From a virus (taxonomy: Duplodnaviria > Heunggongvirae > Uroviricota > Caudoviricetes), in IMG/VR virus record IMGVR_UViG_2721755721_000001: DNA of 64,000 nt. One strand, 5' to 3'. The translations under genes were made by a program, and so were the position numbers. A model generated the notes under the pieces. That model did no database searches, had not been told where the DNA came from, and saw only the letters and a list, made by a program, of their open reading frames with translations. Position 1 is the first letter of the stretch; each line of letters starts with the position of its first letter. This document shows, one piece after another, positions 1 through 12,747 of the stretch.

Positions 1-849
1 TTAGTCTAAATGTTGAATGTCTTTTAAGAAATCCATGGCGCGGATTCTTGATTGACCATTTATCAGGAAAATATAAGATGATAGTTCTCTTTCTGCAGTG
101 TCATTTTTCATTATTTCGTTTTCATTTTTGCGTAACTTAGTTGACTCTATAGTTTTTATCAGACTATTAATTTTTTCATCAAAACCGATAGGTTTTTTTG
201 TTAATGAAATCTTATTTTTTTCAATAGCGCGACGGATCTTTGCTAGAATTTTGTTGCGGATATTTTCAGGGACATTTTCTGAACTTGAGATAAAGTTATG
301 ATTGCCATTTTTTAATGCTTCATTAATTGCATCATAAGGAGATATATATAAATTACTAGGAGTATTATAGGCTGTTTTGGCGTCACCCAGTGTATTGTTC
401 ACAAAATCTGTGCTCTTAGAAATATAAACTACTCCAACTAGCCCCGAAAAATTCTCCCAGAAAACAGATTCAAGATTCTTGTTGTTTGCATTGACCGCTC
501 TTTTGGCAATGGTCTTTTGTTTATTTAGTTCATTTAAAGTTTTTCTTAGTTCAGAATTTATTGAATTTAATTTTTCTTCTGATTCTTTGTATTGTAAATC
601 AAGTTTGGCAATGCTTCCCTCCAATTCTTTTCGTAAGATTTTATTATTCTCTATAAATTTTTGGGAGTTTTCCATTGCAGTTTTTAATTTATTTAATTCA
701 ACTTCTTTTTTTGCAATTTCTTCTGATAAAAGTTCCTTTTGGTAAATTGGTCTTACTGTATAAAAATATCCAAAAATAGCAAATGCCACCAATACAAACT
801 GTGATACATGGCTAACTCGGCTCAAAAAAACATCAACTTTATTTGACAT
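1..849 (-). CDS. hypothetical protein, 282 aa; N-terminal transmembrane helix, long coiled-coil, C-terminal globular region; AT-rich cargo
   Basis: complete ORF (ATG at 847-849, TAA at 1-3); hydrophobic segment VSQFVLVAFAIFGYFYTV; Lys/Glu/Asn-rich heptad-like stretch; no family recognised. Confidence 0.6.
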   Translation of the reverse strand: MSNKVDVFLSRVSHVSQFVLVAFAIFGYFYTVRPIYQKELLSEEIAKKEVELNKLKTAMENSQKFIENNKILRKELEGSIAKLDLQYKESEEKLNSINSELRKTLNELNKQKTIAKRAVNANNKNLESVFWENFSGLVGVVYISKSTDFVNNTLGDAKTAYNTPSNLYISPYDAINEALKNGNHNFISSSENVPENIRNKILAKIRRAIEKNKISLTKKPIGFDEKINSLIKTIESTKLRKNENEIMKNDTAERELSSYIFLINGQSRIRAMDFLKDIQHLD

Positions 850-1210
850 AACGCCTCTATAAGATTCTCTTTTTATCTACAACATTATAATTTTTTAATG
901 AAAAAAATCATCTAAAAATTAGTTCAAAGCAATACGTTCAAACTGATATTGATGCTTAGGAGCTAATCGGTACGTATTGATGGTACAACAGAAAAGAACA
1001 ATAGAAAGCTTGGGGGCTGACGTTGCTACTGGCGCACATACCCATGTCGTACTAAAAGAGTTCATTTGATTTTATAACTATATCAGCCCGTTATTTTTAT
1101 GTTGATGCGAACAGCCCCGCACGCCTGCCCGCTTCGCTTAACAGACTGGTTTTCATGCACCTCATAAATCGTCTCAGAAGCCACCACACAAGGGCTTTCT
1201 CGTCAAAAAT

Positions 1211-1262
1211 GGTGCATAAGGTTCATGCGTTTTCATGCGCTATAGACATGCACTCATGCGCT
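1211..1262. repeat. cluster of TCATGCG / CATGCAC direct repeats at about 10-bp spacing
   Basis: TCATGCG at 1223, 1233, 1254 and CATGCAC at 1247, between ogr-like gene and the 282-aa gene. Confidence 0.35.
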
Positions 1263-1285
1263 CTCAGGCCAGCCAGGGAAAAGGT

Positions 1286-1311
1286 GTTAAAAATCCCGGT
1301 ACTCGACCGGG
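1286..1311 (-). terminator. putative intrinsic terminator after ogr-like gene
   Basis: hairpin CCCGGTCGAGTACCGGG then ATTTTTAA on minus strand, 23 nt past the ogr stop. Confidence 0.45.
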
Positions 1312-1333
1312 ATTACGTGGGCGTTTTTTCTAA

Positions 1334-1615
1334 TCAGACAGGAATCTGCTGACGGCTTGACAGTTTTGACGCGGAGCCATAGCGATTGAGCGTTTGCTGT
1401 TGTTTTACCGGGGGGTGTGATTTGTCTGGTTCCTGTTCATTGCGCCGGGGTTTCATGATTATCTTATCCACACTCTCCAGTGCCGTAAATGTGCAGGAAC
1501 ATTCCAGATTCTGGCACTGATACCACGAGCGTTTAACTGACGGAGCTTCATAGGCTGCTGTTCTGGCGTGTGCAACTGTACCGCATTCCGGACATTTAAG
1601 TGCCATTAAAATCAC
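1334..1615 (-). CDS. ogr: Ogr/Delta-family zinc-finger late transcription activator
   Basis: motifs CPECG...HART...YQCQNLECSCTF...ESV...KP match P2 Ogr / P4 Delta as recalled; true start may be internal Met at 1606. Confidence 0.8.
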   Translation of the reverse strand: MILMALKCPECGTVAHARTAAYEAPSVKRSWYQCQNLECSCTFTALESVDKIIMKPRRNEQEPDKSHPPVKQQQTLNRYGSASKLSSRQQIPV

Positions 1616-2163
1616 TCCTGTATATCGTTAATGTCATTCAGGCGTTGCTGAAAATGCAGATGTTGTGCCGGGGTGTAAGAGTCCTGGCAATCACGAATCA
1701 TCCCGGGGTCAGGTATCAAACCGGATTCATCCAGGATCTCACGATAATCCCCGGCAATTTCAGGCGGTGTTATTGCCAGCTGGCGAACCAGAGCACTGCG
1801 TAATATACGGGACGCAACGTCAACCCCTCCGCGCCCCTTCAGGAACGGAGCCAGTGCAGATGTCAGGGCTGCCCCATTCGCCTGCATAAAATTGCTGAGA
1901 GCGGCTTCTGTGCAGGCCTCCATCAGTAAATGCTGCGCGTAAATGCATTCGCGCGCAGCACAGTTAATTTGCCATTTCAGCACATCCAGACGTTCCCGCA
2001 GTAATTCGAGCTGTCGGGCATAATCTGCTGGTTTTTCTGTGGCAGCGAGGAGAGATGTTATCTGTTGTTCAACGGCTTTTCGGCTCTCACTATGTCCGGC
2101 CCACAGAATACGGGCATTCCGAAAACTGGTAAGTGCCTGGTCAGGCGTGCCTCGGGCCGTCAT
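1612..2163 (-). CDS. hypothetical helical protein, 183 aa (Psu-like by size/position only)
   Basis: ORF translationally coupled between upstream 247-aa ORF and ogr; no motif recognised. Confidence 0.45.
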   Translation of the reverse strand: MTARGTPDQALTSFRNARILWAGHSESRKAVEQQITSLLAATEKPADYARQLELLRERLDVLKWQINCAARECIYAQHLLMEACTEAALSNFMQANGAALTSALAPFLKGRGGVDVASRILRSALVRQLAITPPEIAGDYREILDESGLIPDPGMIRDCQDSYTPAQHLHFQQRLNDINDIQE

Positions 2164-2903
2164 ACTGCTTTCTCCTTCTCAGCGAGTTCCTGACGAACCT
2201 TAATTTTATGCATAGCTGCCGGAGAGAGTTGATTACTGAAATCCAGACGCGCCGCATAATCCGGGGCAACTCCCGCCAGTTTAAACACCGGGTCCTGCTC
2301 AGGCATCGCATCGTTAGCCAGAGCCGGTCTGGTGATATGTTTATGAATAAAGTCTTTCAGCACTGTGTCCGGGTCATTAACTGAATTCACCACACCCACA
2401 ACGGCACTGGCTTCCCGGCCCATTGTGGATTTAAGCAGGCTCAGCGTCTGAATAAGCGCTTTTCCATGCGACTGCATAAAATCCTCCCAGATTTGTTTTG
2501 CGCGAATATCCACAAGAATGTTATGCGCGTGGATATACTTTCCGGCTAATTCTGCAGCTTTCTGCGGCAAAAGTGCATTTTCGCTTTCCTGAGCCGCCAG
2601 CAGCTCATCAAAATCCTCAAGCGTTTCTCGTCCCAGCGCAATTTCCGTGCGCAGTTTTTTCATTTCCTTTGAGACCACGCCCTGACTTTCACGAAACAGC
2701 GTGCGCCACTCCTCATTCAGTGTGTTCGTCGTGGCTTCCATTTCAGCGCGACGCTGGCGGATTGTCGCAATATTATCCGCTGCCGCTTTCTGCTGACGAC
2801 GTGCTTCAAGCCATGCGTTTCTGGCTGTGTTCATGGTTTCCAGTGCCCGCTGCGTTACAGCCGGAAAAGTGGAAAGGTTGTTATTTACTGCGGTATTGTT
2901 CAT
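2160..2903 (-). CDS. hypothetical coiled-coil protein, 247 aa (Sid-like by size/position only)
   Basis: ORF downstream of iteron/promoter region and primase; predicted helical/coiled-coil; no motif recognised. Confidence 0.45.
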   Translation of the reverse strand: MNNTAVNNNLSTFPAVTQRALETMNTARNAWLEARRQQKAAADNIATIRQRRAEMEATTNTLNEEWRTLFRESQGVVSKEMKKLRTEIALGRETLEDFDELLAAQESENALLPQKAAELAGKYIHAHNILVDIRAKQIWEDFMQSHGKALIQTLSLLKSTMGREASAVVGVVNSVNDPDTVLKDFIHKHITRPALANDAMPEQDPVFKLAGVAPDYAARLDFSNQLSPAAMHKIKVRQELAEKEKAV

Positions 2904-2941
2904 GACTTCTCCTGTCGGGTTGGTTCGTTACGTCAATTGTG

Positions 2942-3269
2942 TCGTGGCTGACACAAGCACACTATCGGTGCTCAGTGTGTGGTGGCTGGCACAACGGGCG
3001 CTTGCGGTTATTCAGACGTGGCTATGAAAGCCAGCCAGATAAAAATGCCCTCTGTTTCAGTCTGCTTTATGTCCCTGATGCGGTGGAACAGGTGAAACAT
3101 GTGTTACAGCTTTGTTTTATAAGGCATTTATATACACTGCACCGGTGGAACATCGCGGGTAACAAGGTGAAACAGCGGATTGGCTGGCGTTACATCTGTT
3201 CCACCTCACTATTTCAGAAGGTGGAACAGGTTCAGCCCTGTAAAATACGGTTGTTCCACCTGTTTCACC
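2942..3269. repeat. iteron cluster resembling P4 ori/crr-type repeats
   Basis: GGTGGAACAGGTGAAACA at 3083-3100; GGTGGAACA at 3144 and 3220; GGTGAAACA at 3166; inverted copies TGTTCCACC at 3197 and 3252 and TGTTTCACC at 3261; GTGGCTGNCACAA at 2942 and 2981. Confidence 0.55.
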
Positions 3270-3303
3270 TGTTACCCTTAATAAATAAGACTCACGCAAA
3301 GCC

Positions 3304-5976
3304 TTAACCCGGCACCTCGCTGTTGAAGACATAGAGCCTGCGGGGATTCATCTCTGGCGGGCGAATGGTTGTCTGGAGTTTGCCATCAGTGGAGGGCAGC
3401 AGGTATCCACGATCTGCGCACAGACGCGCCACCTTGCGCGGGTCAAATCCCCTGCAGATTTCTTTCCAGCCGGACGGCATGACATAGAACGTAGTGACAG
3501 CTTCCGTGCCCTGCGCGGTACTGCCTTTCTCCACCCTTCGCCAGCCCACCATATTGCCGGGGCGGTTGCGCTCGTCATACCAGTCTGCAAAGCGGCTGTA
3601 CTGATTCGCGGTAAAGAAACTGCGAACCTGCTCCAGTGCGGCGATATCTTCCTGATTGGCGGTGTGCCCGCGATCTTTCAGCCATGCGTTCAGGCAGACG
3701 CGGGTTGCCCGCAGTGCTTCACCCTCAGGCCAGCCGGTGATACCCAGACGGGTTGCCAGTTCACCTGCCATCGCCACCAGTGCAAAGCGGTTCACAGCCC
3801 GGCCCACCTGATTGCCTGCATCTTTCGGAGTCAGGGCGGCAGCATATTCCTTCATCAGCGATTTTGCCTGTGCCGTTAGTCCGTTAAGATCAGCGGTCAG
3901 TGCTTTCAGCCACTCCCGGAACGGCGAACCGTAGTAGCAGGACGTGGCCCATTCAAGATGCTCTGCCAGAGCCTTGCCGCTGTCGAAGCCGTGCAGCTCC
4001 TCAAAAACGCCAAACTTCCCGGAATCGCTGGGGATCTGGATCATCCTGACTTCCATCCCGGCAAAAGTACGCTCACCGGCCTTTGCCGCATGTTCGGTCA
4101 GAGACAATTCGCCAGTTGAAAAGAACAACAGGCGCCACTGCTTACGGGTACGCAGCTCACCGTCCGTACCGGCACGGCCCTTGCCCTGACCGTTTGCCAG
4201 CATGTAGGCGATATTGCCTGCCTCGCGTCCGTCAACTTCCCGGATCTCATCAAGCATCATGGCGGCATCGTTGCGGCGGCTGGCGCATCCCTCCAGTGCG
4301 TTGCCGGTGGCCCGCCATGTCTGCCAGTAGTCAGGCCCGCCGCAGACGGAGGTTGCTGCTTTCATGGTGGTGGTCTTACCGTCTGTCGATTCCCCTTTGA
4401 GGTGGTAGCCGCCGCCGTCCATACCAACCAGCCGTAACAGTGGTGCAGCAAAGGCCAGGCTGACAGCAAATGCCACGCGGGAGTTGCCGGTACAGTAGCG
4501 GGATACATGCTCCCGCCATTCCTCTGTTGTGCCCGACACGCGGAAATCACGCCCCTGCACGGAAGTGGTCTGGAGAATGACACCCTCTGCACCTTCACCG
4601 CTGACCTCATCCTGCAGGACGTAAACCTGACCATGCCAGCCAGTACGACTGACGCAGGTCACGCGGCGTTCCGGTTTACACAGTGAGATATATTCCATCA
4701 GGCGTGCGCGTGCCTCACCGGTGGTGCTGATATAAGACAGCCCGTTAACCAGCAGTACCCGGCGCAGTTCCTCACCACTGCCGCTCAGCATTTCCATCGG
4801 CATCGCCCAGCGGCGACACTCACCCCACGTATCTTCCCATTCCAGCAGTCGTCCGAAGTTACCGCCATCGGCATCGCAGGTGATTGCCGTCACGCGCAGC
4901 GGGCTGCATATTTTGACGTTCTGGATCTCCGTCTCACCGTTGCGCTGTACCTGCTTTTCATACCAGAGATATTCCTGGGTAAGACGGAACCCGTGCGGCA
5001 GTTGCGTGCGGCTTTCCCCGCAGAGTACCAGACCGTTGCGAAAGGCTTCACGGGCACGGGTAATACCGTGCTCCCGATGAAAGTCATTCCAGTCAGCCTT
5101 AATCTCTTCTGGTGGCAGCGTCATCCAGCCGCCAACAGCTTTTGCCGCCCGTTCAGCAAAGGCTCTGCCGGGATTCTCACCCCCGTCCTGAAAATCGTTA
5201 TCACCGGCGATGATAATTTTTACCTCAGGCCAGCGTGCCCGCAGCGACTGCGCCACATTGGGCAGGTTGCCCGCAGATATGGCAGCCACTACGCATCCGG
5301 CAGTGAGCTGGCTTACCGTCAGCGCCGTAGCGTAACCTTCGGTAATCACCACCTGTATCGGTGGTTCAGACGGTAACGGGCTGAGCGACACAAACGCGCC
5401 TTTCATCGTGCTGCCGGGCAGTATGCTTTTTTCACCCGTCGGGGCGATAAGCTGTGCACCGGTCACGGCTCCGGTGTTGGTCGTGAGTGGTAACAGCAGG
5501 GAACCGGCAGGAAAATCCTTACCGCTGATATGCTGTACGCTTCCGGTCAGAGAGGCCGGGTATCCGGCGAACCCTTTTCCTGTCAGATAGGCGCTTTCTC
5601 CCGTGTGGCTCTCTTTCATCAGCGCCGCCACGGTAAGACCCATGTCGCGTTTAGGGGCTTTTTGTCTGGCAGGCTTAACAGGCAGTTCCTGCATATCCGG
5701 CACATTAAGCACCTGCGCCACCTCCTGCGCAGCCTTTCTGACGTTGTAACCGGTTACGAGCTTAACCAGATCCAGACCGTCACCATTGCCACACTGGCTG
5801 CAGATCCACGTCCCGCGCCCGTCAAGGTCATCAAGGCGAAAACGATCCTTGCCCCCACATTTCGGGCAGGGACCGTGCCTGCCGTTTTCAGGTACATCAA
5901 TACGCAGCATCTGCAGAATAACGGGCCATTTCCCCCGTGCGGCGGCTGAAACCTGCGTAACCGTCTGTATTGTCAT
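3304..5976 (-). CDS. DNA primase/helicase, P4 alpha-like
   Basis: 890 aa; N-terminal zinc motif CPKCGG...CSQCG; acidic primase-like cluster IIIAGDNDFQDGGENPG; P-loop GESTDGKTT in C-terminal half. Confidence 0.85.
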   Translation of the reverse strand: MTIQTVTQVSAAARGKWPVILQMLRIDVPENGRHGPCPKCGGKDRFRLDDLDGRGTWICSQCGNGDGLDLVKLVTGYNVRKAAQEVAQVLNVPDMQELPVKPARQKAPKRDMGLTVAALMKESHTGESAYLTGKGFAGYPASLTGSVQHISGKDFPAGSLLLPLTTNTGAVTGAQLIAPTGEKSILPGSTMKGAFVSLSPLPSEPPIQVVITEGYATALTVSQLTAGCVVAAISAGNLPNVAQSLRARWPEVKIIIAGDNDFQDGGENPGRAFAERAAKAVGGWMTLPPEEIKADWNDFHREHGITRAREAFRNGLVLCGESRTQLPHGFRLTQEYLWYEKQVQRNGETEIQNVKICSPLRVTAITCDADGGNFGRLLEWEDTWGECRRWAMPMEMLSGSGEELRRVLLVNGLSYISTTGEARARLMEYISLCKPERRVTCVSRTGWHGQVYVLQDEVSGEGAEGVILQTTSVQGRDFRVSGTTEEWREHVSRYCTGNSRVAFAVSLAFAAPLLRLVGMDGGGYHLKGESTDGKTTTMKAATSVCGGPDYWQTWRATGNALEGCASRRNDAAMMLDEIREVDGREAGNIAYMLANGQGKGRAGTDGELRTRKQWRLLFFSTGELSLTEHAAKAGERTFAGMEVRMIQIPSDSGKFGVFEELHGFDSGKALAEHLEWATSCYYGSPFREWLKALTADLNGLTAQAKSLMKEYAAALTPKDAGNQVGRAVNRFALVAMAGELATRLGITGWPEGEALRATRVCLNAWLKDRGHTANQEDIAALEQVRSFFTANQYSRFADWYDERNRPGNMVGWRRVEKGSTAQGTEAVTTFYVMPSGWKEICRGFDPRKVARLCADRGYLLPSTDGKLQTTIRPPEMNPRRLYVFNSEVPG

Positions 5977-6356
5977 ACTTCCCCCTCATACAACGTCACA
6001 CCGGTACTGCAGAAGTCATCAAATGCCGCCGGAAGCGTGCGGTACATCTCCGCCATCACTTCACAGCCGCGCGCGGTCAGTACCGGCGGCGCGGTCAGCA
6101 GTGACGGCTCCAGCATGTCAGTCAGCAGTGCCAGCGCGGCAGCGGCGCCCTGCACTTCGCCGTACTCGTTAATCAGTACGCACTCGATATGCAGCGCAAT
6201 GGCCATTTCAATACGCTCCACCGTCAGGCTGTGCGGACCATACTGATCACTGCCAGTTTCGTTCAGCATTTTCTGCCGCCATGCTGAAGCAATAGCCCGC
6301 CGGTAAAGCGCGGTGGTCATTTCTACCGGGAAAATGGAAACCTGCGGCTGGTTCAT
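5973..6356 (-). CDS. hypothetical protein, 127 aa
   Basis: ORF overlapping primase start by 4 nt in satellite early operon. Confidence 0.45.
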   Translation of the reverse strand: MNQPQVSIFPVEMTTALYRRAIASAWRQKMLNETGSDQYGPHSLTVERIEMAIALHIECVLINEYGEVQGAAAALALLTDMLEPSLLTAPPVLTARGCEVMAEMYRTLPAAFDDFCSTGVTLYEGEV

Positions 6357-6637
6357 CTGGCACCTCCTTCAATCAGTGCGCAGCTGTGTGCAATATCCGT
6401 CAAATCTGCCAGCAGGTACTCCATCAGCGCGGCGACACCAGGCGCACAGCCTGCGTCCAGTGCTCCGGCCTGAGACGGGTATTCAGAAAAGAGAAGCTGG
6501 AGCATGTCGCAGGCATTTCTTGCGCGGGTCAGCTTTCCGAAACTGTCCTCTGACAACCCATAGGCAAAAGCACCGGTATTGTGTTTTTCAGGCAAAGTGT
6601 GGCCCTGAGCACCGTTGTGCCCGTTTGAAATATTCAT
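6353..6637 (-). CDS. hypothetical protein, 94 aa
   Basis: ORF translationally coupled within the same operon. Confidence 0.4.
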   Translation of the reverse strand: MNISNGHNGAQGHTLPEKHNTGAFAYGLSEDSFGKLTRARNACDMLQLLFSEYPSQAGALDAGCAPGVAALMEYLLADLTDIAHSCALIEGGAR

Positions 6638-6668
6638 CGTGGATTACTCCGTTTTCAGCGGTATTTTG

Positions 6669-7058
6669 TCAGAGAAACTTTGAATAGTGACCGTCGTCAG
6701 GCTCAGCAGAACGCCGTATGCTACGCTCCCGCCAGCGGATAAATAGCACAGACGGATGCAGTGTCAGCGGGCCGGAACCACTACCGCCAGCAGGAGCTGG
6801 TGCAGGCTTCAAGAGCGGTACATCAAACAGGCGCGTATACCGCTGTTCAAACCATGCCAGAGGGCAGGAAGAAAGCTTGTTGTCGCTGTCATGACGTATC
6901 AGCACTTCACAGCTGAATTCAGGATTAACCAGCGCCACAGAGGGCGAGGCTTCTATTAATCGGATAATCGTGACCGTCCAGCCACGTTCATGCTGCCAGC
7001 GTTCGCCGGGGTGCGGATAATTACGCATGTTCACCTCCGCAGGGAATGCGCCCGGCAA
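6669..7058 (-). CDS. hypothetical protein, 129 aa (start uncertain)
   Basis: ORF in satellite early operon; alternative internal start MRNYPHP. Confidence 0.4.
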   Translation of the reverse strand: MPGAFPAEVNMRNYPHPGERWQHERGWTVTIIRLIEASPSVALVNPEFSCEVLIRHDSDNKLSSCPLAWFEQRYTRLFDVPLLKPAPAPAGGSGSGPLTLHPSVLFIRWRERSIRRSAEPDDGHYSKFL

Positions 7059-7251
7059 AGCTCAGTACATAGTCCGGGGCAAGTCTGCGCCGCGCTGATC
7101 GTTCGTTATCTGCGGTGATCCTTAACATCACAGGACGGGCATTGCGTTGACTGCGGTTGATCGCCGCAAATAACCAGGTACACTTCTGTTTAGCCATCTT
7201 CGTTACCTCATATAACGTGCTGGTCAGACGCCTCGGTGCTGCTGCAAACAC
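7021..7251 (-). CDS. hypothetical small basic protein (likely starts at MAKQKC, position 7197)
   Basis: ORF immediately downstream of the palindromic operator region. Confidence 0.35.
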   Translation of the reverse strand: MFAAAPRRLTSTLYEVTKMAKQKCTWLFAAINRSQRNARPVMLRITADNERSARRRLAPDYVLSFAGRIPCGGEHA

Positions 7252-7279
7252 TCCGGGGCGTTGCTATTTTGTTTTTCTG

Positions 7280-7300
7280 TGTGTAATGTGTCATTACACA
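7280..7300. promoter_or_regulatory. perfect 9-3-9 palindrome TGTGTAATG-TGT-CATTACACA, putative operator
   Basis: located 14 bp upstream of the plus-strand RHH-like ORF and upstream of the minus-strand primase operon; ATTACA...TGTAAT half-sites recur at 7308-7326. Confidence 0.5.
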
Positions 7301-7313
7301 TAAATACATTACA

Positions 7314-7508
7314 ATGGGTGTAATTGACGTGTCAACACACAAAAATGAAAGACGTGGGAATCCGCCATTCCAGTTCCGACTTGACCCTGAACTGCGTGAA
7401 CTGATGGAACAAGCACAACAGCAGGATGGCGATGAATCGCTAGCGGCTTGGATCAAGCGCATTCTACGCAAAGAGTTACAAAGCCGAGGTTTAGAACCAA
7501 AGAATTGA
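7314..7508 (+). CDS. putative ribbon-helix-helix DNA-binding protein, 64 aa
   Basis: FQFRLDPELRELMEQA...SLAAWIKRILRKEL fits strand-helix-helix pattern; only plus-strand gene in the module; followed by hairpin GGGGAG-loop-CTCCCC at 7517-7540. Confidence 0.45.
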   Translation: MGVIDVSTHKNERRGNPPFQFRLDPELRELMEQAQQQDGDESLAAWIKRILRKELQSRGLEPKN

Positions 7509-7557
7509 TTAATACGTTGGGGAGGCTTTTTTCTCCCCAGCTTTGTTAATATTGTCA

Positions 7558-7773
7558 TTACACTACTTCCTCCAATCCTGCTGATTGAGCTTTAACCCAC
7601 TGCCTAATTTCTTGTGCATCGTAAACAGATACCCGTTTTGAAATGCGTATAGATTTGGGAAATTCAGGATTGTTCTTTTCCCAGCGCCAGAGAGTAACCG
7701 TACTTATTTGCAAAAAGTCAGCAGTAGCTCGTGGGCGGGCATGTCCAGTGATAGGATAAGTTTTTAATGTCAT
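7558..7773 (-). CDS. alpA: AlpA-family helix-turn-helix regulator
   Basis: 71 aa with AlpA-like pattern (LQISTVTLWRWEKNNPEFP...VYDAQEIRQW). Confidence 0.7.
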   Translation of the reverse strand: MTLKTYPITGHARPRATADFLQISTVTLWRWEKNNPEFPKSIRISKRVSVYDAQEIRQWVKAQSAGLEEVV

Positions 7774-7875
7774 GAAATTACCTGCCGTATTATGTAATGA
7801 ACACGGCAGATACTATGGGGATATCAAAATGCTGTGAAGGTAGTGTAATCAACTCTACCTGTAGATTGTTTCAGT

Positions 7876-8757
7876 CTACCCCTTTTGTTTTAATCCCGCA
7901 TGATTAACCGCTAATCGTAATTTTCTTAAGATTTCTTGTTCATTAGTGATAAATATTGGAGGTAGCTCTCCTAAATGTTTAATTATGGCGTTAGTCCACT
8001 TTTCAGGACTTATCTCTTTTCTTTCACCACGACATTCGCTTGGGTATTTTGCTAATATATATATGGCTGCATTTAATAACCCCTCCCTATTTTTTGCATG
8101 ATGCTCAGCAGTGTTATTTAATCGCTTGGGGATTTTAGGTTCAGATGAAATTCTTTTCGTAAGTAAACTTGGCATAGGAATTCCAGTTTTTACTGATTTC
8201 CATATTAACTCTAAATCTCTTCGCATGATAAGAAGATCTTCAAATGGAATCTTAATTACCTTATTTCCTTCATATGAGGCCGTTGCCATCAAAACATTAT
8301 CTCGTATTTTTACCGGTTTAAGCCTGAATTCATAATCTGGATCTATAGCTAATCCATTTTTTATGTCACTTATCATATCATCGGCGTACCAAATACCACA
8401 GGCAAATCCTATAATTTGAAGCCCATTTTCAAAATGTTCAAAGGAATCATCTTTAAGGTCATACCATATTGTTGAAAATTCCATCTCTAGTGATTGATTA
8501 GTTAATACGGGATGAATTAAGTCAATTTCCATTTTCTGATTTTTATTGAGGAAATTAACATTAAATCTAACTGCAAGTCCATCCGCCTTGAATGCGATAT
8601 TAAAAGCGCCTATTTCGTATAGATGTAATAAATCATCAATCTCGCATTCTAATAGTCTTGAAGCGCGTTCAAATGAACAATATTCTAATGGTGGTATTTT
8701 TTTGTCAATCCATAGATTTCCTAAGAATATAGTTTCATTCTCTGTTGAATGCTGCAT
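7876..8757 (-). CDS. hypothetical protein, 293 aa; AT-rich cargo between int and alpA
   Basis: complete ORF starting 30 bp after the int stop; GC well below flanking genes; no family recognised. Confidence 0.6.
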   Translation of the reverse strand: MQHSTENETIFLGNLWIDKKIPPLEYCSFERASRLLECEIDDLLHLYEIGAFNIAFKADGLAVRFNVNFLNKNQKMEIDLIHPVLTNQSLEMEFSTIWYDLKDDSFEHFENGLQIIGFACGIWYADDMISDIKNGLAIDPDYEFRLKPVKIRDNVLMATASYEGNKVIKIPFEDLLIMRRDLELIWKSVKTGIPMPSLLTKRISSEPKIPKRLNNTAEHHAKNREGLLNAAIYILAKYPSECRGERKEISPEKWTNAIIKHLGELPPIFITNEQEILRKLRLAVNHAGLKQKG

Positions 8758-8787
8758 TATGACCTCTGTTTTAAATTATAAGAGTAT

Positions 8788-10122
8788 TTAATTGATAATG
8801 TTAATACCTGATAAGTCATAAGGAGCATGGAATTCGTCCTTATTTAGTTCCAGATAATTAGACCACCATTGCATCATTCTGCGGCGTTCCTGCATGTGCT
8901 GCGCAAGATGCACATATGCTGCCCGCACTTCGTTTCTTTCTTGGTGACTCATCTGCCGTTCAACTGCATCGCGTGACCAGAGTCCTGATTCGGTCAGTGC
9001 AGAGCAGGCCATCGCCCTGAACCCATGCAAGCAAACATCAGTTTGAGTGTCGTAACCCATCGTTCGCAGTGCTTTATTAACTGTGTTTTCGCTCATCGGT
9101 TTATATGGGTTGCTGTCACCGGGAAAAACCAGCAGATATTCACCACTGATTTTCCTTATATCCTCCAGTACCCCGATAGCCTGACTAGATAGCGGGACAT
9201 AATGAGCAGCCCCCATCTTTGCACCCCGATCTGAGAATTTAACCCCTGCGATCTCTTCACGTTGTCCTGGTATCGTCCATAGCCCATTTTCAATGTCGAT
9301 CTCCTCCCATCTGGCATGTCGTAGTTCGCTGGATCGCACAAAAGTGTGCAGGGAAAAGAGAACTGCTAGGCGAGTCAATGGTCTTCCCGTGTAACTTCTC
9401 GTTTTCGCTAACAGTTCAGGTAAACGTTCGAGAGGTAGTGCGGGGCGATGTCGTACTTTGGGGGCCGTAATTGCACCTTTTAGATCGTGGGCAGGGTTGT
9501 AATCGACAATTCCACGTTGCACGGCATAACGGAAGATGCTCGTCATAGTGGTTTTTACACGGCTCGTTGTGGCACCAATTCCTTTCTCAGTCATCTCAAC
9601 CAGCATCGGCATCAAGTCACGGGTTTTGAGCGTATCGATAGGCTTTGAACCGATGGCAGGAAAGAGGTGGTTTTCCATTTCTCGGAGAATTTTTTTACGG
9701 GTGATCTCTTTCCACTCAGGATGCCCCATCGTTCCACTATGCCACTCTCTGGCAACACTCTCGAACGTGGGGGAAATTGGGTCTTCCTTTTTGGGTTTCT
9801 TTGCTTCGCGAGGATCACGACCATCGGCTAGTAGTTGCCTGGCTTCATCACGCCGTTTCCGCGCTGTTGCAAGTGAGACATCTGGGTAGACCCCTAATGC
9901 CAATGTCACTTGTTTTCCATCAAAACGATAATTCATACGCCAGTATTTTCCACCAGTCTTTCGTACCAGTAGATACAAACTCCCTCCATCGGTAAGTTTG
10001 TAATCATTGGTCTTCGGCTTGGCGTTTTCTATCTGTTTGGGGGAAAGCACATTAATGGCCATATCTGTACTCATTTTGGTAAATTGATGGTATCTGCATA
10101 TCGAACTGGGGAATACCATCAC
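8788..10122 (-). CDS. int: tyrosine integrase, P4-type
   Basis: 444 aa; N-terminal arm-binding-like region (LTDGGSLYLLVRKTGGKYWRMNYRFDGK); C-terminal catalytic region with HGFRAMACSAL and late Tyr. Confidence 0.9.
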   Translation of the reverse strand: MMVFPSSICRYHQFTKMSTDMAINVLSPKQIENAKPKTNDYKLTDGGSLYLLVRKTGGKYWRMNYRFDGKQVTLALGVYPDVSLATARKRRDEARQLLADGRDPREAKKPKKEDPISPTFESVAREWHSGTMGHPEWKEITRKKILREMENHLFPAIGSKPIDTLKTRDLMPMLVEMTEKGIGATTSRVKTTMTSIFRYAVQRGIVDYNPAHDLKGAITAPKVRHRPALPLERLPELLAKTRSYTGRPLTRLAVLFSLHTFVRSSELRHARWEEIDIENGLWTIPGQREEIAGVKFSDRGAKMGAAHYVPLSSQAIGVLEDIRKISGEYLLVFPGDSNPYKPMSENTVNKALRTMGYDTQTDVCLHGFRAMACSALTESGLWSRDAVERQMSHQERNEVRAAYVHLAQHMQERRRMMQWWSNYLELNKDEFHAPYDLSGINIIN

Positions 10123-10334
10123 TTATACCATCACGAGGTTGTAATGTCATGAAATTAACTGAAATGAAAATCAGGCCGATTCGGTGATAACTTACTGTTT
10201 TTTTAAGTGGTTATGTAATGAAGTGAAATGTAGAGAAAGGTCTTTAAAGTGTCCCCTGCAGACATCTACTTGAGGCAGCAGGGGATTGATTGGAATGGTG
10301 TTTTTTAGGTGTGAGAAATATTTTACCCGCTATT

Positions 10335-10535
10335 TTACCCATTGGCGCGGCTTAAGAGCTTATTTTTGAATTCACAATGGTCACGATATAACCATCTTGC
10401 TCGACCGTGGATAACTTTGGCTTTTGGCAGGTCGCCGGACTTAATCCGGTCGTAGATGAAGGTTTTACCAAAGCCAGTATCGGCCATGATGAATTTCAAA
10501 TCAACCAGTGAATCAGGTTGTAGTTCGTGTTGCAT
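10335..10535 (-). CDS. AlpA/Xis-family excisionase-like HTH protein
   Basis: 66 aa, FIMADTGFGKTFIYDRIKSGDLPKAKVIHGRARWLYRD pattern; immediately upstream of int. Confidence 0.6.
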   Translation of the reverse strand: MQHELQPDSLVDLKFIMADTGFGKTFIYDRIKSGDLPKAKVIHGRARWLYRDHCEFKNKLLSRANG

Positions 10536-10577
10536 GAGTGCTATCTCCGAATAGGGAATCGAACCTGCAAATCAGGC

Positions 10578-10600
10578 AAGAAAAAACCGCCATCAGGCGG
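10578..10600 (-). terminator. intrinsic terminator between early-left genes and xis-like gene
   Basis: minus strand CCGCC-TGAT-GGCGG then TTTTTTCTT. Confidence 0.55.
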
Positions 10601-10666
10601 CTTGGTGTTCTTTCAGTTCTTCAATTCGAATATTGGTTACATTGTTTTCATATATGAATAAATAAA

Positions 10667-10879
10667 TTAGCTTTTTTCGTTGCCTTCGCGTTCTTTATTA
10701 ATTTTGACAAAATCGTTTTTACCACGCTCTCCAAATGCGTCTTTAGAGTCGTTGTATCCGCAATCGCAGCACACATAATCATCAGACCATCCACGCATTG
10801 TTTTTTCTTTTGCAATATTTCCAGAACCGCATTTTGGACAAGACATATCACTACCTCCAAAGCATGAGAGAGATGACAA
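10667..10879 (-). CDS. small zinc-ribbon protein
   Basis: CPKCGSG...CCDCGY four-Cys motif; start may be internal MSCPKCG. Confidence 0.5.
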   Translation of the reverse strand: MSSLSCFGGSDMSCPKCGSGNIAKEKTMRGWSDDYVCCDCGYNDSKDAFGERGKNDFVKINKEREGNEKS

Positions 10880-10942
10880 CGTAACATTGATTGGAGATTA
10901 ACAATAGATTGCTGATGTAAAAGATATGTATAAGCTTAGCTA

Positions 10943-11317
10943 TCAAAGGGGAGGCTCTGGTAGCGGCATCCAGTGTGACGGTTTCCACGACGCACCAGGA
11001 ATTATCCACCCATCATTAGCGTCAGGATGCCCCGGGATGTAAGTCGCCCATTTCATTCGCCAGTCACCTTTCCTGTCAAACTCCCTGGCAACAAGAACGG
11101 CTGTTTTGGTATCCGGCATTCGCTCACTACAGCTTATCCAACCATCAGGAGTTACCGGAGAGTTGCCGGGTTCTTTAATGTGCAAGCGAGGCTCACCATC
11201 TTTTGGCTCAGGCCACTGGCGCTCCATGTTGATCTTCAATTTATCTTCCATAGCAGCGGTAATTTCAGCATCGCTGATGCCAGCACGGCGCTGTGCATCC
11301 CACAACAGGAAATGCAT
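10943..11317 (-). CDS. DUF551-like phage protein
   Basis: Trp-rich C-terminal pattern as recalled for DUF551; in frame with the upstream ORF across a TAG. Confidence 0.5.
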   Translation of the reverse strand: MHFLLWDAQRRAGISDAEITAAMEDKLKINMERQWPEPKDGEPRLHIKEPGNSPVTPDGWISCSERMPDTKTAVLVAREFDRKGDWRMKWATYIPGHPDANDGWIIPGASWKPSHWMPLPEPPL

Positions 11318-11326
11318 ATCAGCCCA

Positions 11327-11572
11327 CTAGCTGAGATCGTCTGGTTCGGCTGCGGCTTCCAGAGCCTCTTTTGAGAGGTGTTTCAGTGGACCAATGGGGC
11401 CAACGCAGCCAAATGTGGAGTCAGACCATTTGGCATGCTCGTGGCGAATCAGTTCGCGTTCCAGTGATGCCAGTGCAATTCGTGCCAGTTCCATTTGTTC
11501 GCCACGAGTAAGCCCGTTTTCAAGCGGATTTTTAATGAACAATTCAATACGTTCTTTGGTAATAGTGGTCAT
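11327..11572 (-). CDS. hypothetical protein, 81 aa (possibly N-terminal part of a gene interrupted by an amber codon)
   Basis: ORF ends at TAG 11327-11329; same frame continues 9 nt later into the DUF551 ORF. Confidence 0.4.
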   Translation of the reverse strand: MTTITKERIELFIKNPLENGLTRGEQMELARIALASLERELIRHEHAKWSDSTFGCVGPIGPLKHLSKEALEAAAEPDDLS

Positions 11573-11582
11573 TTGTTAGTCC

Positions 11583-12338
11583 TTAAACTGCTAGTTGCAA
11601 TTGCATTTCAAAGCGGTCGCGTTGTTCACAATACGCAAGAGAACCAGGGCTATTGTGTGCCTCAATCCGTTCTACCATTAATGCTGCGCGTGTCTCTTTA
11701 CTTGCAGGTGCATAAGCCCCAGACCAGGCTTTATCAATACCGATGTTTCGAGCGACGTTCGTACTATCTGCGCTGGCTAAGGGTAATTTTGTGAATATCA
11801 GCGGATTTAACATGCGCAATCCATGTAGTTTCGTAACCGGCTGACCATGCCCATCAACAATGTGACGAATCAGGTCTTTCATTCTGGCTACCGCAAGAGT
11901 TGGGCGCTTTACGTCATAGTCGCCACAACTACCGATAGCCACTCGCGGAAACTCATTGCACAAATGAATAAATCGCGCGTCACTTTCATTCATGTGCCAC
12001 ACTGGAACGCCAGCTAGTTTTCCGTGAGGCCACTCATTCAGAAGCGCATCATTTTCCTCCTCTCCGCCATCAATAATATCCGGGATAATGGCAAAATCGA
12101 ATCCTGGGTGATTCTTCCAGCGAGCAACAAACTCGTAGTAATCGCTCCAGTCGATTTTGTTTTTGCCAGCTGCTTTCCAGGCGGTGAATGCACCGTTGTC
12201 CAGCGCGAACGACTGACAGTATTCAGCCGCGAGATTGATCTGGCCTGAATGCGCAAAACTGATAAACGCATGTCGCCCTTTCCATGCTCTCATTGCGCAC
12301 GTATCAGGAGTAATAGGCCCACCGTGGTAGTGAATCAT
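11583..12338 (-). CDS. conserved hypothetical early-left protein, about 251 aa
   Basis: ORF; likely start MIHYHGGPITP at 12338; family not recognised. Confidence 0.5.
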   Translation of the reverse strand: MIHYHGGPITPDTCAMRAWKGRHAFISFAHSGQINLAAEYCQSFALDNGAFTAWKAAGKNKIDWSDYYEFVARWKNHPGFDFAIIPDIIDGGEEENDALLNEWPHGKLAGVPVWHMNESDARFIHLCNEFPRVAIGSCGDYDVKRPTLAVARMKDLIRHIVDGHGQPVTKLHGLRMLNPLIFTKLPLASADSTNVARNIGIDKAWSGAYAPASKETRAALMVERIEAHNSPGSLAYCEQRDRFEMQLQLAV

Positions 12339-12339
12339 C

Positions 12340-12747
12340 TCACTCTCCTTTGATGCGAATGCCAGTAGCGCGGATTGCATCGATGACTTCAGAAACTTTG
12401 TATGCCATTACCGTTTGGTAATCATCGTGAAAATCTGTTCGATGAAGCATGCTGCTACGTTCCGGGAGCAGTATTTCCCGCGCTTCCAGTTCTGCAATGC
12501 GCTTTTTTGCTGCTTCCAGTTCATCCAGTAATTCCAGCACGGTAGCCGGATTAGCCTTGGCAACAAAATCCCGGACTGGCTTACAATCAATCTCCGCAAT
12601 GGGTTGATACGATGTGTAGCCATGCTGTCTTGTATAACTACCGTGACGAATAACGAAAAAATCACCATTTATTTTTTTAGCCTGCCACTTATCTTCACCG
12701 GCTTTCTCTGCCGCTTCACGCAGTGCCTGAGAGTTAATTTCGCTCAC
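12340..12747 (-). CDS. Ead/Ea22-like protein
   Basis: PATVLELLDELEAAKKRIAELEA coiled-coil motif typical of Ead/Ea22-like proteins as recalled. Confidence 0.5.
   Translation of the reverse strand: MSEINSQALREAAEKAGEDKWQAKKINGDFFVIRHGSYTRQHGYTSYQPIAEIDCKPVRDFVAKANPATVLELLDELEAAKKRIAELEAREILLPERSSMLHRTDFHDDYQTVMAYKVSEVIDAIRATGIRIKGE

Follow-up and report, generated by a model that had tools for sequence, protein, structure and literature searches.

Where an integrated phage satellite begins its replication, and which of its proteins reads the starting site, is the question raised by a dense group of short repeats in the DNA considered here. The window, i.e. the whole 64-kb stretch of the virus record IMGVR_UViG_2721755721_000001, opens (positions 1 to ~10200) with an integrated P4-like satellite of Escherichia coli, which is 100% identical to NZ_CP148579 and carries all of its genes on the minus strand. 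The repeats lie in a 400-bp gap (3303–2904) between an 890-aa primase-helicase gene (5976–3304, stop codon 3304–3306) and the start, at 2903, of a sid-like gene. These gene limits agree with the original prediction, which had further proposed that the cluster is the origin or cis replication site of the adjacent primase-helicase, and this is very likely to be so. More specifically, we consider it highly probable that the array at 3082–3278 is the single replication origin of the satellite, built in the style of the staphylococcal pathogenicity islands (SaPIs) and the phage-inducible chromosomal islands (PICIs). The principle of such origins is already established and the array adds a further case to it; in the literature searched, no paper was found that describes the origin of this initiator lineage.

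The motif GGTGRAACA occurs at eight exact sites within 3082–3269, starting at 3082, 3091, 3144, 3166 and 3220 on the plus strand and at 3197, 3252 and 3261 on the minus strand, with only two more in the other ~63.8 kb. In shuffles of the whole window the mean is 1.39 and the maximum 6; the clustering is far beyond chance, and the dense, two-orientation cluster with its tandem is as originally described. When two mismatches are allowed, degenerate copies appear at 3102–3110 (−), 3156–3164 (+), 3188–3196 (−) and 3270–3278 (−), all four of which stand at positions that are occupied in relatives too, bringing the total to ~12 sites (eight exact and ~4 degenerate) across 3082–3278. At this same stringency, 14 matches fall in the 206-bp array stretch, where the frequency in the remaining sequence would predict ~1.5. 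The sites form two blocks. The block proximal to the initiator gene (3144–3278) holds the exact sites 3144, 3166, 3197, 3220, 3252 and 3261 and the degenerate sites 3156, 3188 and 3270, the first of its sites (ending at 3278) beginning 26 bp after the initiator stop codon. The distal block (3082–3110) holds the tandem GGTGGAACAGGTGAAACA at 3082–3099, made of the exact sites 3082 and 3091, together with the degenerate site 3102–3110; the inverted counterpart of this tandem is found at 3252–3269 (18 nt, 89% complementary). Between the blocks lies an AT-rich spacer (3100–3143), the first bases of which overlap the degenerate site 3102–3110 and the GC content of which (0.30, reached at 3100–3139) is the lowest in the composition profile of the interval, making it a candidate DNA-unwinding element. 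No second cluster of these sites was found elsewhere in the element, even with one mismatch allowed.

The array is a recurring feature of the protein family and not of this satellite alone. A 15-homologue alignment was used to fetch 78 loci, one genome per species, of which 74 were usable (of the L044 protein, which is frameshifted in the assembly, only the C-terminal 231 aa were used). When the repeats were looked for in these related elements, they were found, similarly arranged, in 60 of the 74 loci, where the 320 bp after the gene are the unique maximum of the locus with at least six copies of a 7-mer, a number reached by 0.35% of 5716 control windows. The protein identities at these 60 loci span 37–99% and the hosts range from Enterobacterales to Burkholderiales. 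In three further loci, from Klebsiella, Scandinavium and Apirhabdus (L038, L046 and L062), an array of 10–13 copies of GTGGGAACA lies ~1.1 kb downstream of the initiator gene, at about 8650–9760, and a gene inserted between initiator and origin is therefore implied. The recurring layout consists of a tandem of two to three sites with 9-bp spacing, ~25–45 bp after the stop codon, then sites of mixed orientation, a gap of ~50 bp and an inverted tandem at about +200. Moreover, the array persists after the initiator gene whether sid, delta alone, unrelated open reading frames (ORFs) or a PICI capsid module comes next.

What is conserved here is the layout; the repeat sequence itself differs by clade. 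The repeat is GGTGGAACA in the window clade and Serratia sp. Ag1, GGTGTAACA in Pantoea, Yersinia and some Xenorhabdus and Proteus, GGGGTAACA in some loci of Rouxiella, Serratia and one Proteus, CTGGTAACA in many Enterobacterales, TGGATACA in Brenneria and GTACTACA in Rahnella; the more distant hosts (Burkholderiales and a metagenome-assembled genome of Desulfohalobiaceae) have GGGTTAC, CGGTTAC, TGGGGACA or CAGGGGC. The nucleotide alignment of the window clade with the Pantoea clade (alignment A3), for which the proteins are 90% identical, gives the closest view of such a change: the site positions are kept while the spacers diverge, and all copies change their fifth base in concert, from GGTG-G/A-AACA to GGTG-T-AACA. 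The spacer between the blocks is AT-rich in both of these clades, its sequence itself not being conserved.

The protein that would read these sites is of mixed build. Its Zn-ribbon and Toprim primase occupies aa 1–322 and a DUF927 helicase aa 330–612, followed by a C-terminal helical and winged-helix region. Matches to the Pfam families Zn_Ribbon_Prim, Toprim_3 and DUF927 (2e-90) were found in it; D5_N, DUF5906 and Pox_D5 (PF03288) were absent from the same scan, in which all three were seen in the P4 alpha protein. BLASTP aligns it with P4 alpha over aa 5–322 only, at 38% identity, and the matches of its central part to sequences in the PDB are SaPIbov1 Rep (8TCH, 4.6e-15) and SCCmec Cch (5DGK, 2.9e-13), the latter a DUF927 protein related to the former (PMC7581432). 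An AlphaFold2 model of aa 611–890 (mean predicted local distance difference test score of 72, and ~90 for aa 780–890) gave as the top Foldseek matches the same two structures, 8TCH (E = 6.5e-6) and 5DGK, with weaker matches to TcpK, an oriT-binding winged-helix protein; the P4 origin-binding domain was absent from the PDB sequence matches and from the fold-search matches alike. The P4 likeness confined to aa 5–322, the DUF927 assignment and the SaPIbov1 Rep and Cch matches in both sequence and predicted fold thus show a chimeric protein, in which a primase of the P4 type is joined to a self-loading, MCM-like helicase of the SaPIbov1-Rep/Cch type. In other words, the name of alpha-like primase originally given to it holds for the N-terminal Zn-ribbon/Toprim part and fails for the helicase and the C-terminus.

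The last part of this protein, aa 821–890 (3307–3516, minus strand), is a predicted winged-helix domain with a helix at 846–855 and a hairpin at 869–884, and is the presumed reader of the iterons. In this regard, the natural changes of iteron are instructive. Among protein pairs that differ by no more than 6% over aa 326–820, those that share an iteron have a ratio of divergence between aa 821–890 and aa 326–820 of 1.08, while for pairs whose iterons differ this ratio is 2.6. Four independent switches were compared, with the C-terminal substitutions set against those in aa 326–820: 11/68 vs 7/462 for L029/L019 (Fisher p = 1e-6), 4/68 vs 2/495 for L024/L027 (p = 0.0024), 6/68 vs 7/495 for L022/L023 (p = 0.0022) and 6/70 vs 19/495 for the window and L006. 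The substitutions fall at 846, 850 and 854, in the start and body of the predicted helix, and at 860–871 and 878–887, in the hairpin, residue 870 being altered in three of the four switches. Relative to the window protein, the Pantoea clade has L860M, P861A, T863V, T870S and P878V. Such a pattern would fit a winged-helix reader, as a correlation on few events and no demonstration.

Taken together, these features suggest how the origin would work. The 890-aa protein would use its C-terminal winged-helix domain to bind the 9-bp sites and would assemble there as a self-loading, MCM-like (DUF927) helicase, which would then melt the AT-rich stretch at 3100–3143, whereupon the fused Toprim primase of the same protein would prime synthesis. 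Several points weigh against this reading. Binding, melting and priming by the protein are all steps that we infer; the AT-rich stretch is off-centre, with three sites on one side and nine on the other, where SaPI origins are described as roughly symmetrical; and 11 of the 74 loci are without a clear array. Moreover, the iteron switch of the window's own clade is not individually significant (p = 0.076), the AlphaFold2 model is good only for aa ~700–890, and the alignment behind that model is shallow, with 43 sequences of which none falls below 55% identity to the query across the part modelled.

The comparison with known islands is close in its main lines, the nearest systems being SaPIbov1 Rep with its ori, SaPI Rep2 and, as a structural relative, SCCmec Cch. 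SaPI Reps use a C-terminal winged helix to bind 6–12 iterons that stand immediately downstream of rep and are grouped about an AT-rich centre (PMC9371898; PMC7581432). In the window, the array likewise stands immediately 3′ of the initiator-helicase gene, and short iterons flank an AT-rich region, albeit asymmetrically, with the outer tandems forming inverted repeats. The differences from SaPIbov1 lie in the parts: there the primase is a separate archaeo-eukaryotic primase (PMC7581432), here one of the P4 Zn-ribbon/Toprim type is fused at the N-terminus; the SaPIbov1 iterons are 5–6 bp long, those here 9 bp; sequence identity in the C-terminal region is only 11–13%; and SaPIbov1 comes from a staphylococcal island, the present element being a P4-like satellite of Enterobacterales. 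Gram-negative PICIs share with the satellite both the gene order (int, alpA, small genes, initiator, ori and helper-exploitation genes, in one direction of transcription) and the placing, just past the initiator gene, of two iteron sets on either side of an AT-rich region. One of these, EcCICFT073, has a pri-rep-ori segment that drives plasmid replication (Fillol-Salom et al. 2018, PMC6092414). Its Pri-Rep, however, is of the D5_N/DUF5906/Pox_D5 type, i.e. that of the P4 alpha helicase, and is not alignable with the 890-aa protein, and its iteron, GGTAGAC, is unlike that of the window. The association of helicase and element is therefore crossed, the EcCICFT073 PICI using a P4-type helicase and this P4-like satellite one of the SaPIbov1 type.

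Two closed circular PICI-like records, NZ_CP148430 (L085, 12152 bp, E. coli) and NZ_CP142848 (L086, 10541 bp, K. aerogenes), also bear on the matter. In both, a Toprim-DUF927 gene, with a product ~33% identical to the 890-aa protein, is the only annotated replication gene and has its own iterons directly after it. They were deposited as small circular plasmids and carry int, alpA or Icd-like, and PerC or capsid genes. These records are probably episomal satellites captured in assemblies. They are the only sign, and an indirect one, that Rep and ori may suffice for autonomous replication. Two other records were set aside as natural evidence of replication: OX345456, a linear contig labelled plasmid, is uninformative, and pTAO100 has its own RepM.

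The 400-bp gap also holds a separate regulatory element. The original prediction had grouped with the iterons two repeats of the form GTGGCTGRCACAA (GTGGCTG(A/G)CACAA), which are indeed present at 2944–2956 and 2982–2994. As iterons these were rejected, since they correspond to two TGT-N12-ACA dyads at the spacing of the P4 sid promoter, Psid; TGT-N12-ACA is the Ogr/Delta operator consensus of the P2 and P4 late promoters (PMC3931495). Read from the sequence, the distal dyad is TGTGCCAGCCACCACACA (2976–2993, minus strand) and the proximal one TGTGTCAGCCACGACACA (2938–2955, minus strand), the latter followed by a conserved ACAATTGAC. The dyad centres are 38 bp apart and the proximal centre is 43.5 bp from the sid ATG, both distances being identical to those of P4 Psid (L002, dyads at 9493–9510 and 9531–9548, ATG at 9583). 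In nine relatives TGT, ACA and ACAATTGAC are invariant while the flanking sequence drifts. The element, moreover, encodes an Ogr/Delta protein of its own (delta, 1334–1615). The dyad pair at 2938–2993 thus reads as a Psid-type, Delta/Ogr-activated late promoter of sid-psu-delta, separate from the array. Footprinting by Julien and Calendar reportedly placed the two P4 sites near −55 and −18; if these centres apply, the start point of the late promoter in the window would presumably lie near 2929. A scan of 2800–3400 gave no sigma-70 consensus promoter, as expected for an activator-dependent promoter, and no terminator between the alpha-like gene and sid, which leaves the end of the alpha-like transcript without explanation. 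Between the Delta operators and the iterons, at 3010–3037, the half-repeat ACGTGGCT recurs a third time as a partial copy (3016–3023), which overlaps a short hairpin, TGGCT-ATGAA-AGCCA, and is conserved in the window clade only.

Since P4 belongs to the same satellite family, sharing sid, psu, delta, alpA, a DUF5375 gene and a P4-like integrase, it is natural to ask whether the cluster is a true homologue of P4 ori or crr, composed of type I iterons that are read by a C-terminal domain of the P4 alpha type. The repeat is the P4 type I octamer GGTGAACA with one extra central base (GGTG-R-AACA), the N-terminal primase is P4-like at 38% identity, and the 88 bp from the iterons to the distal Delta dyad compares with 80 bp in P4. 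The position is also suggestive: in P4, crr stands just after alpha, and ori ~80 bp upstream of the Psid operators, and here the single array fills both places, for which reason the original prediction could not choose between the two. P4, however, has two regions 4.5 kb apart, an ori of six octamers with type II repeats and a crr of two 120-bp repeats, as against one array here; it has a terminator between alpha and crr, where none is predicted here; its gene order differs, sid-psu-delta in the satellite following directly downstream of the alpha-like gene; and its helicase and origin-binding domain are not homologous to those of the window protein. Within 2903–3304 neither form of the octamer (TGTTCACC/GGTGAACA) was found, the element holding one isolated copy, at 7028, and in a blastn comparison of P4 with the satellite only int and the 5′ part of alpha aligned, with nothing for ori, crr or cos. 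The comparison with P4 thus turned out negative, and we regard such homology as very improbable. The likeness of the core, which the original prediction had stressed, is real, yet it is best taken as coincidence or convergence: it is no evidence of homology, because the reading domain is not homologous (D5_N, DUF5906 and Pox_D5 being absent) and the repeat varies freely within the family, sister clades using CTGGTAACA, TGGATACA and GTACTACA, among others. As a separate matter, GGTGAACA occurs eight times in the whole window against 2.4 expected, a number reached by none of 100 shuffles; seven of the eight copies are scattered over 30–62 kb (30629–61696), outside the satellite, with no apparent clustering.

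It could also be that the array is mainly a control site, serving for copy-number or incompatibility handcuffing, for autoregulation or for blocking transcripts that would run on from alpha into sid, with replication starting elsewhere. Plasmid iterons commonly serve control as well as initiation, P4 itself needs two separate iteron regions, and where no terminator is predicted between alpha and sid a bound protein could gate read-through. Such a role is nonetheless unlikely to be the main one, as the element has no other cluster of these sites, the AT-rich stretch lies inside the array, and the layout matches origins that are functional in SaPIs and PICIs. The proximity of the late promoter raises a further alternative, namely that the repeats serve the sid-psu-delta promoter as upstream activators or enhancers, for their distance upstream of the Delta operators is 88–275 bp and they share the side of the gene. 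That promoter, however, has a complete P4-like TGT-N12-ACA operator pair of its own, the array follows the initiator gene also where the next gene is delta alone, unrelated or a PICI capsid module, and the iteron sequence co-varies with the initiator C-terminus, all of which make an enhancer scarcely probable. The late promoter expected for the sid- and psu-sized genes is present, while the overlap with the repeats that had been ascribed to it is not, as the iterons end 88 bp away; a coupled control of replication and the late promoter is not indicated, given this lack of overlap and the persistence of the iterons where the downstream genes differ.

With an origin as the preferred reading of the array, a broader proposal may be put forward tentatively, as something rather less than probable. 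Toprim-DUF927 initiators with downstream 9-bp arrays may constitute a widespread, uncharacterised replicon family to which P4-like satellites, PICIs and further islands belong, in hosts from Enterobacterales to Burkholderiales. The origin specificity of the family would repeatedly have been re-set by a few substitutions in the wing and recognition helix (846, 861, 863, 870, 878 and 887), with all ~12 sites changing in concert. If true, this re-setting would amount to a natural, readable code of protein–DNA recognition, and would let co-resident satellites escape cross-replication or incompatibility. The natural specificity switches are the most useful by-product of the analysis, in that close relatives with different iterons give a small set of candidate specificity residues for self-loading initiator helicases. 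For annotation, the gain is that an origin and a late promoter are placed in an element with related copies in 328 of the 5426 complete E. coli genomes.

A second consequence concerns the classification of satellites. Of the P4-like core set of de Sousa and Rocha, int, psu, delta, a sid-like gene and alpA are found in the satellite; neither epsilon/Ash (PF10554) nor a PF03288-type alpha was detectable by Pfam scan, so the full set is incomplete. A census of P4-like satellites (PMC8628076) searched for alpha via PF03288 and reported a frequent 'Type C' class that "lacks epsilon and alpha". The satellite fits this published class, and would count as incomplete under standard P4-like detection. 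Because the searches use PF03288, alpha is scored as lacking in a large class of P4-like satellites. The present locus suggests that such "alpha-lacking" satellites are not replication-defective, and combine a PICI-style origin with a helicase of the SaPIbov1-Rep type to which a P4-type primase is fused.

The rest of the satellite follows a PICI-like order rather than that of P4, namely int, alpA, small genes, initiator, ori, sid-psu-delta and cargo, on one strand. From its outer end, the minus strand carries a P4-type integrase (10122–8788), a 293-aa ORF (8757–7876), alpA (7773–7558), small ORFs of which one is Icd-like, and a DUF5375 gene (6356–5973), DUF5375 being also the family of P4 orf106, before the initiator gene is reached. 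Beyond the gap, the late operon comprises the sid-like gene (247 aa, 2903–2160), which has a weak Psu-family match, psu (2163–1612, Psu Pfam match 3e-44) and delta (1615–1334, Ogr_Delta Pfam match 7.5e-16), all on the minus strand, and cargo without annotation lies below 850. On the opposite strand, at 7314–7508 (+), a 64-aa ORF matches an Arc-like repressor PHROG (9e-6), and an Rfam scan of 1–11000 matched no family and hence no P4 cI/C4-type RNA. Because of these two observations, the immunity of the satellite may be protein-based rather than RNA-based as in P4.

As to the ends of the element, a comparison, in locus L001, of the sequence upstream of int with the far flank gave no direct repeat of at least 12 bp that could mark att sites, no tRNA gene was found in the window or in L001, and window 1–10400 contains nothing that matches the P2/P4 cos region. 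A 480-bp non-coding stretch downstream of delta (850–1334) is the expected place for a cos site. Two hypothetical genes, at 1–849 of the window (minus strand) and at 8431–9135 of L001, stand where P4 has its defence hotspot, past the late operon and before the element ends; the former has no Pfam or PHROG match, and both are candidate anti-phage cargo. On the other side, directly after the integrase (10123–12400 and beyond), come torI (xis) and the early genes of an HK620/P22-like prophage, with 96–99% identity to HK620, Sf101 and Kapi1, from which it follows that the satellite and a non-P2-like prophage stand in tandem.
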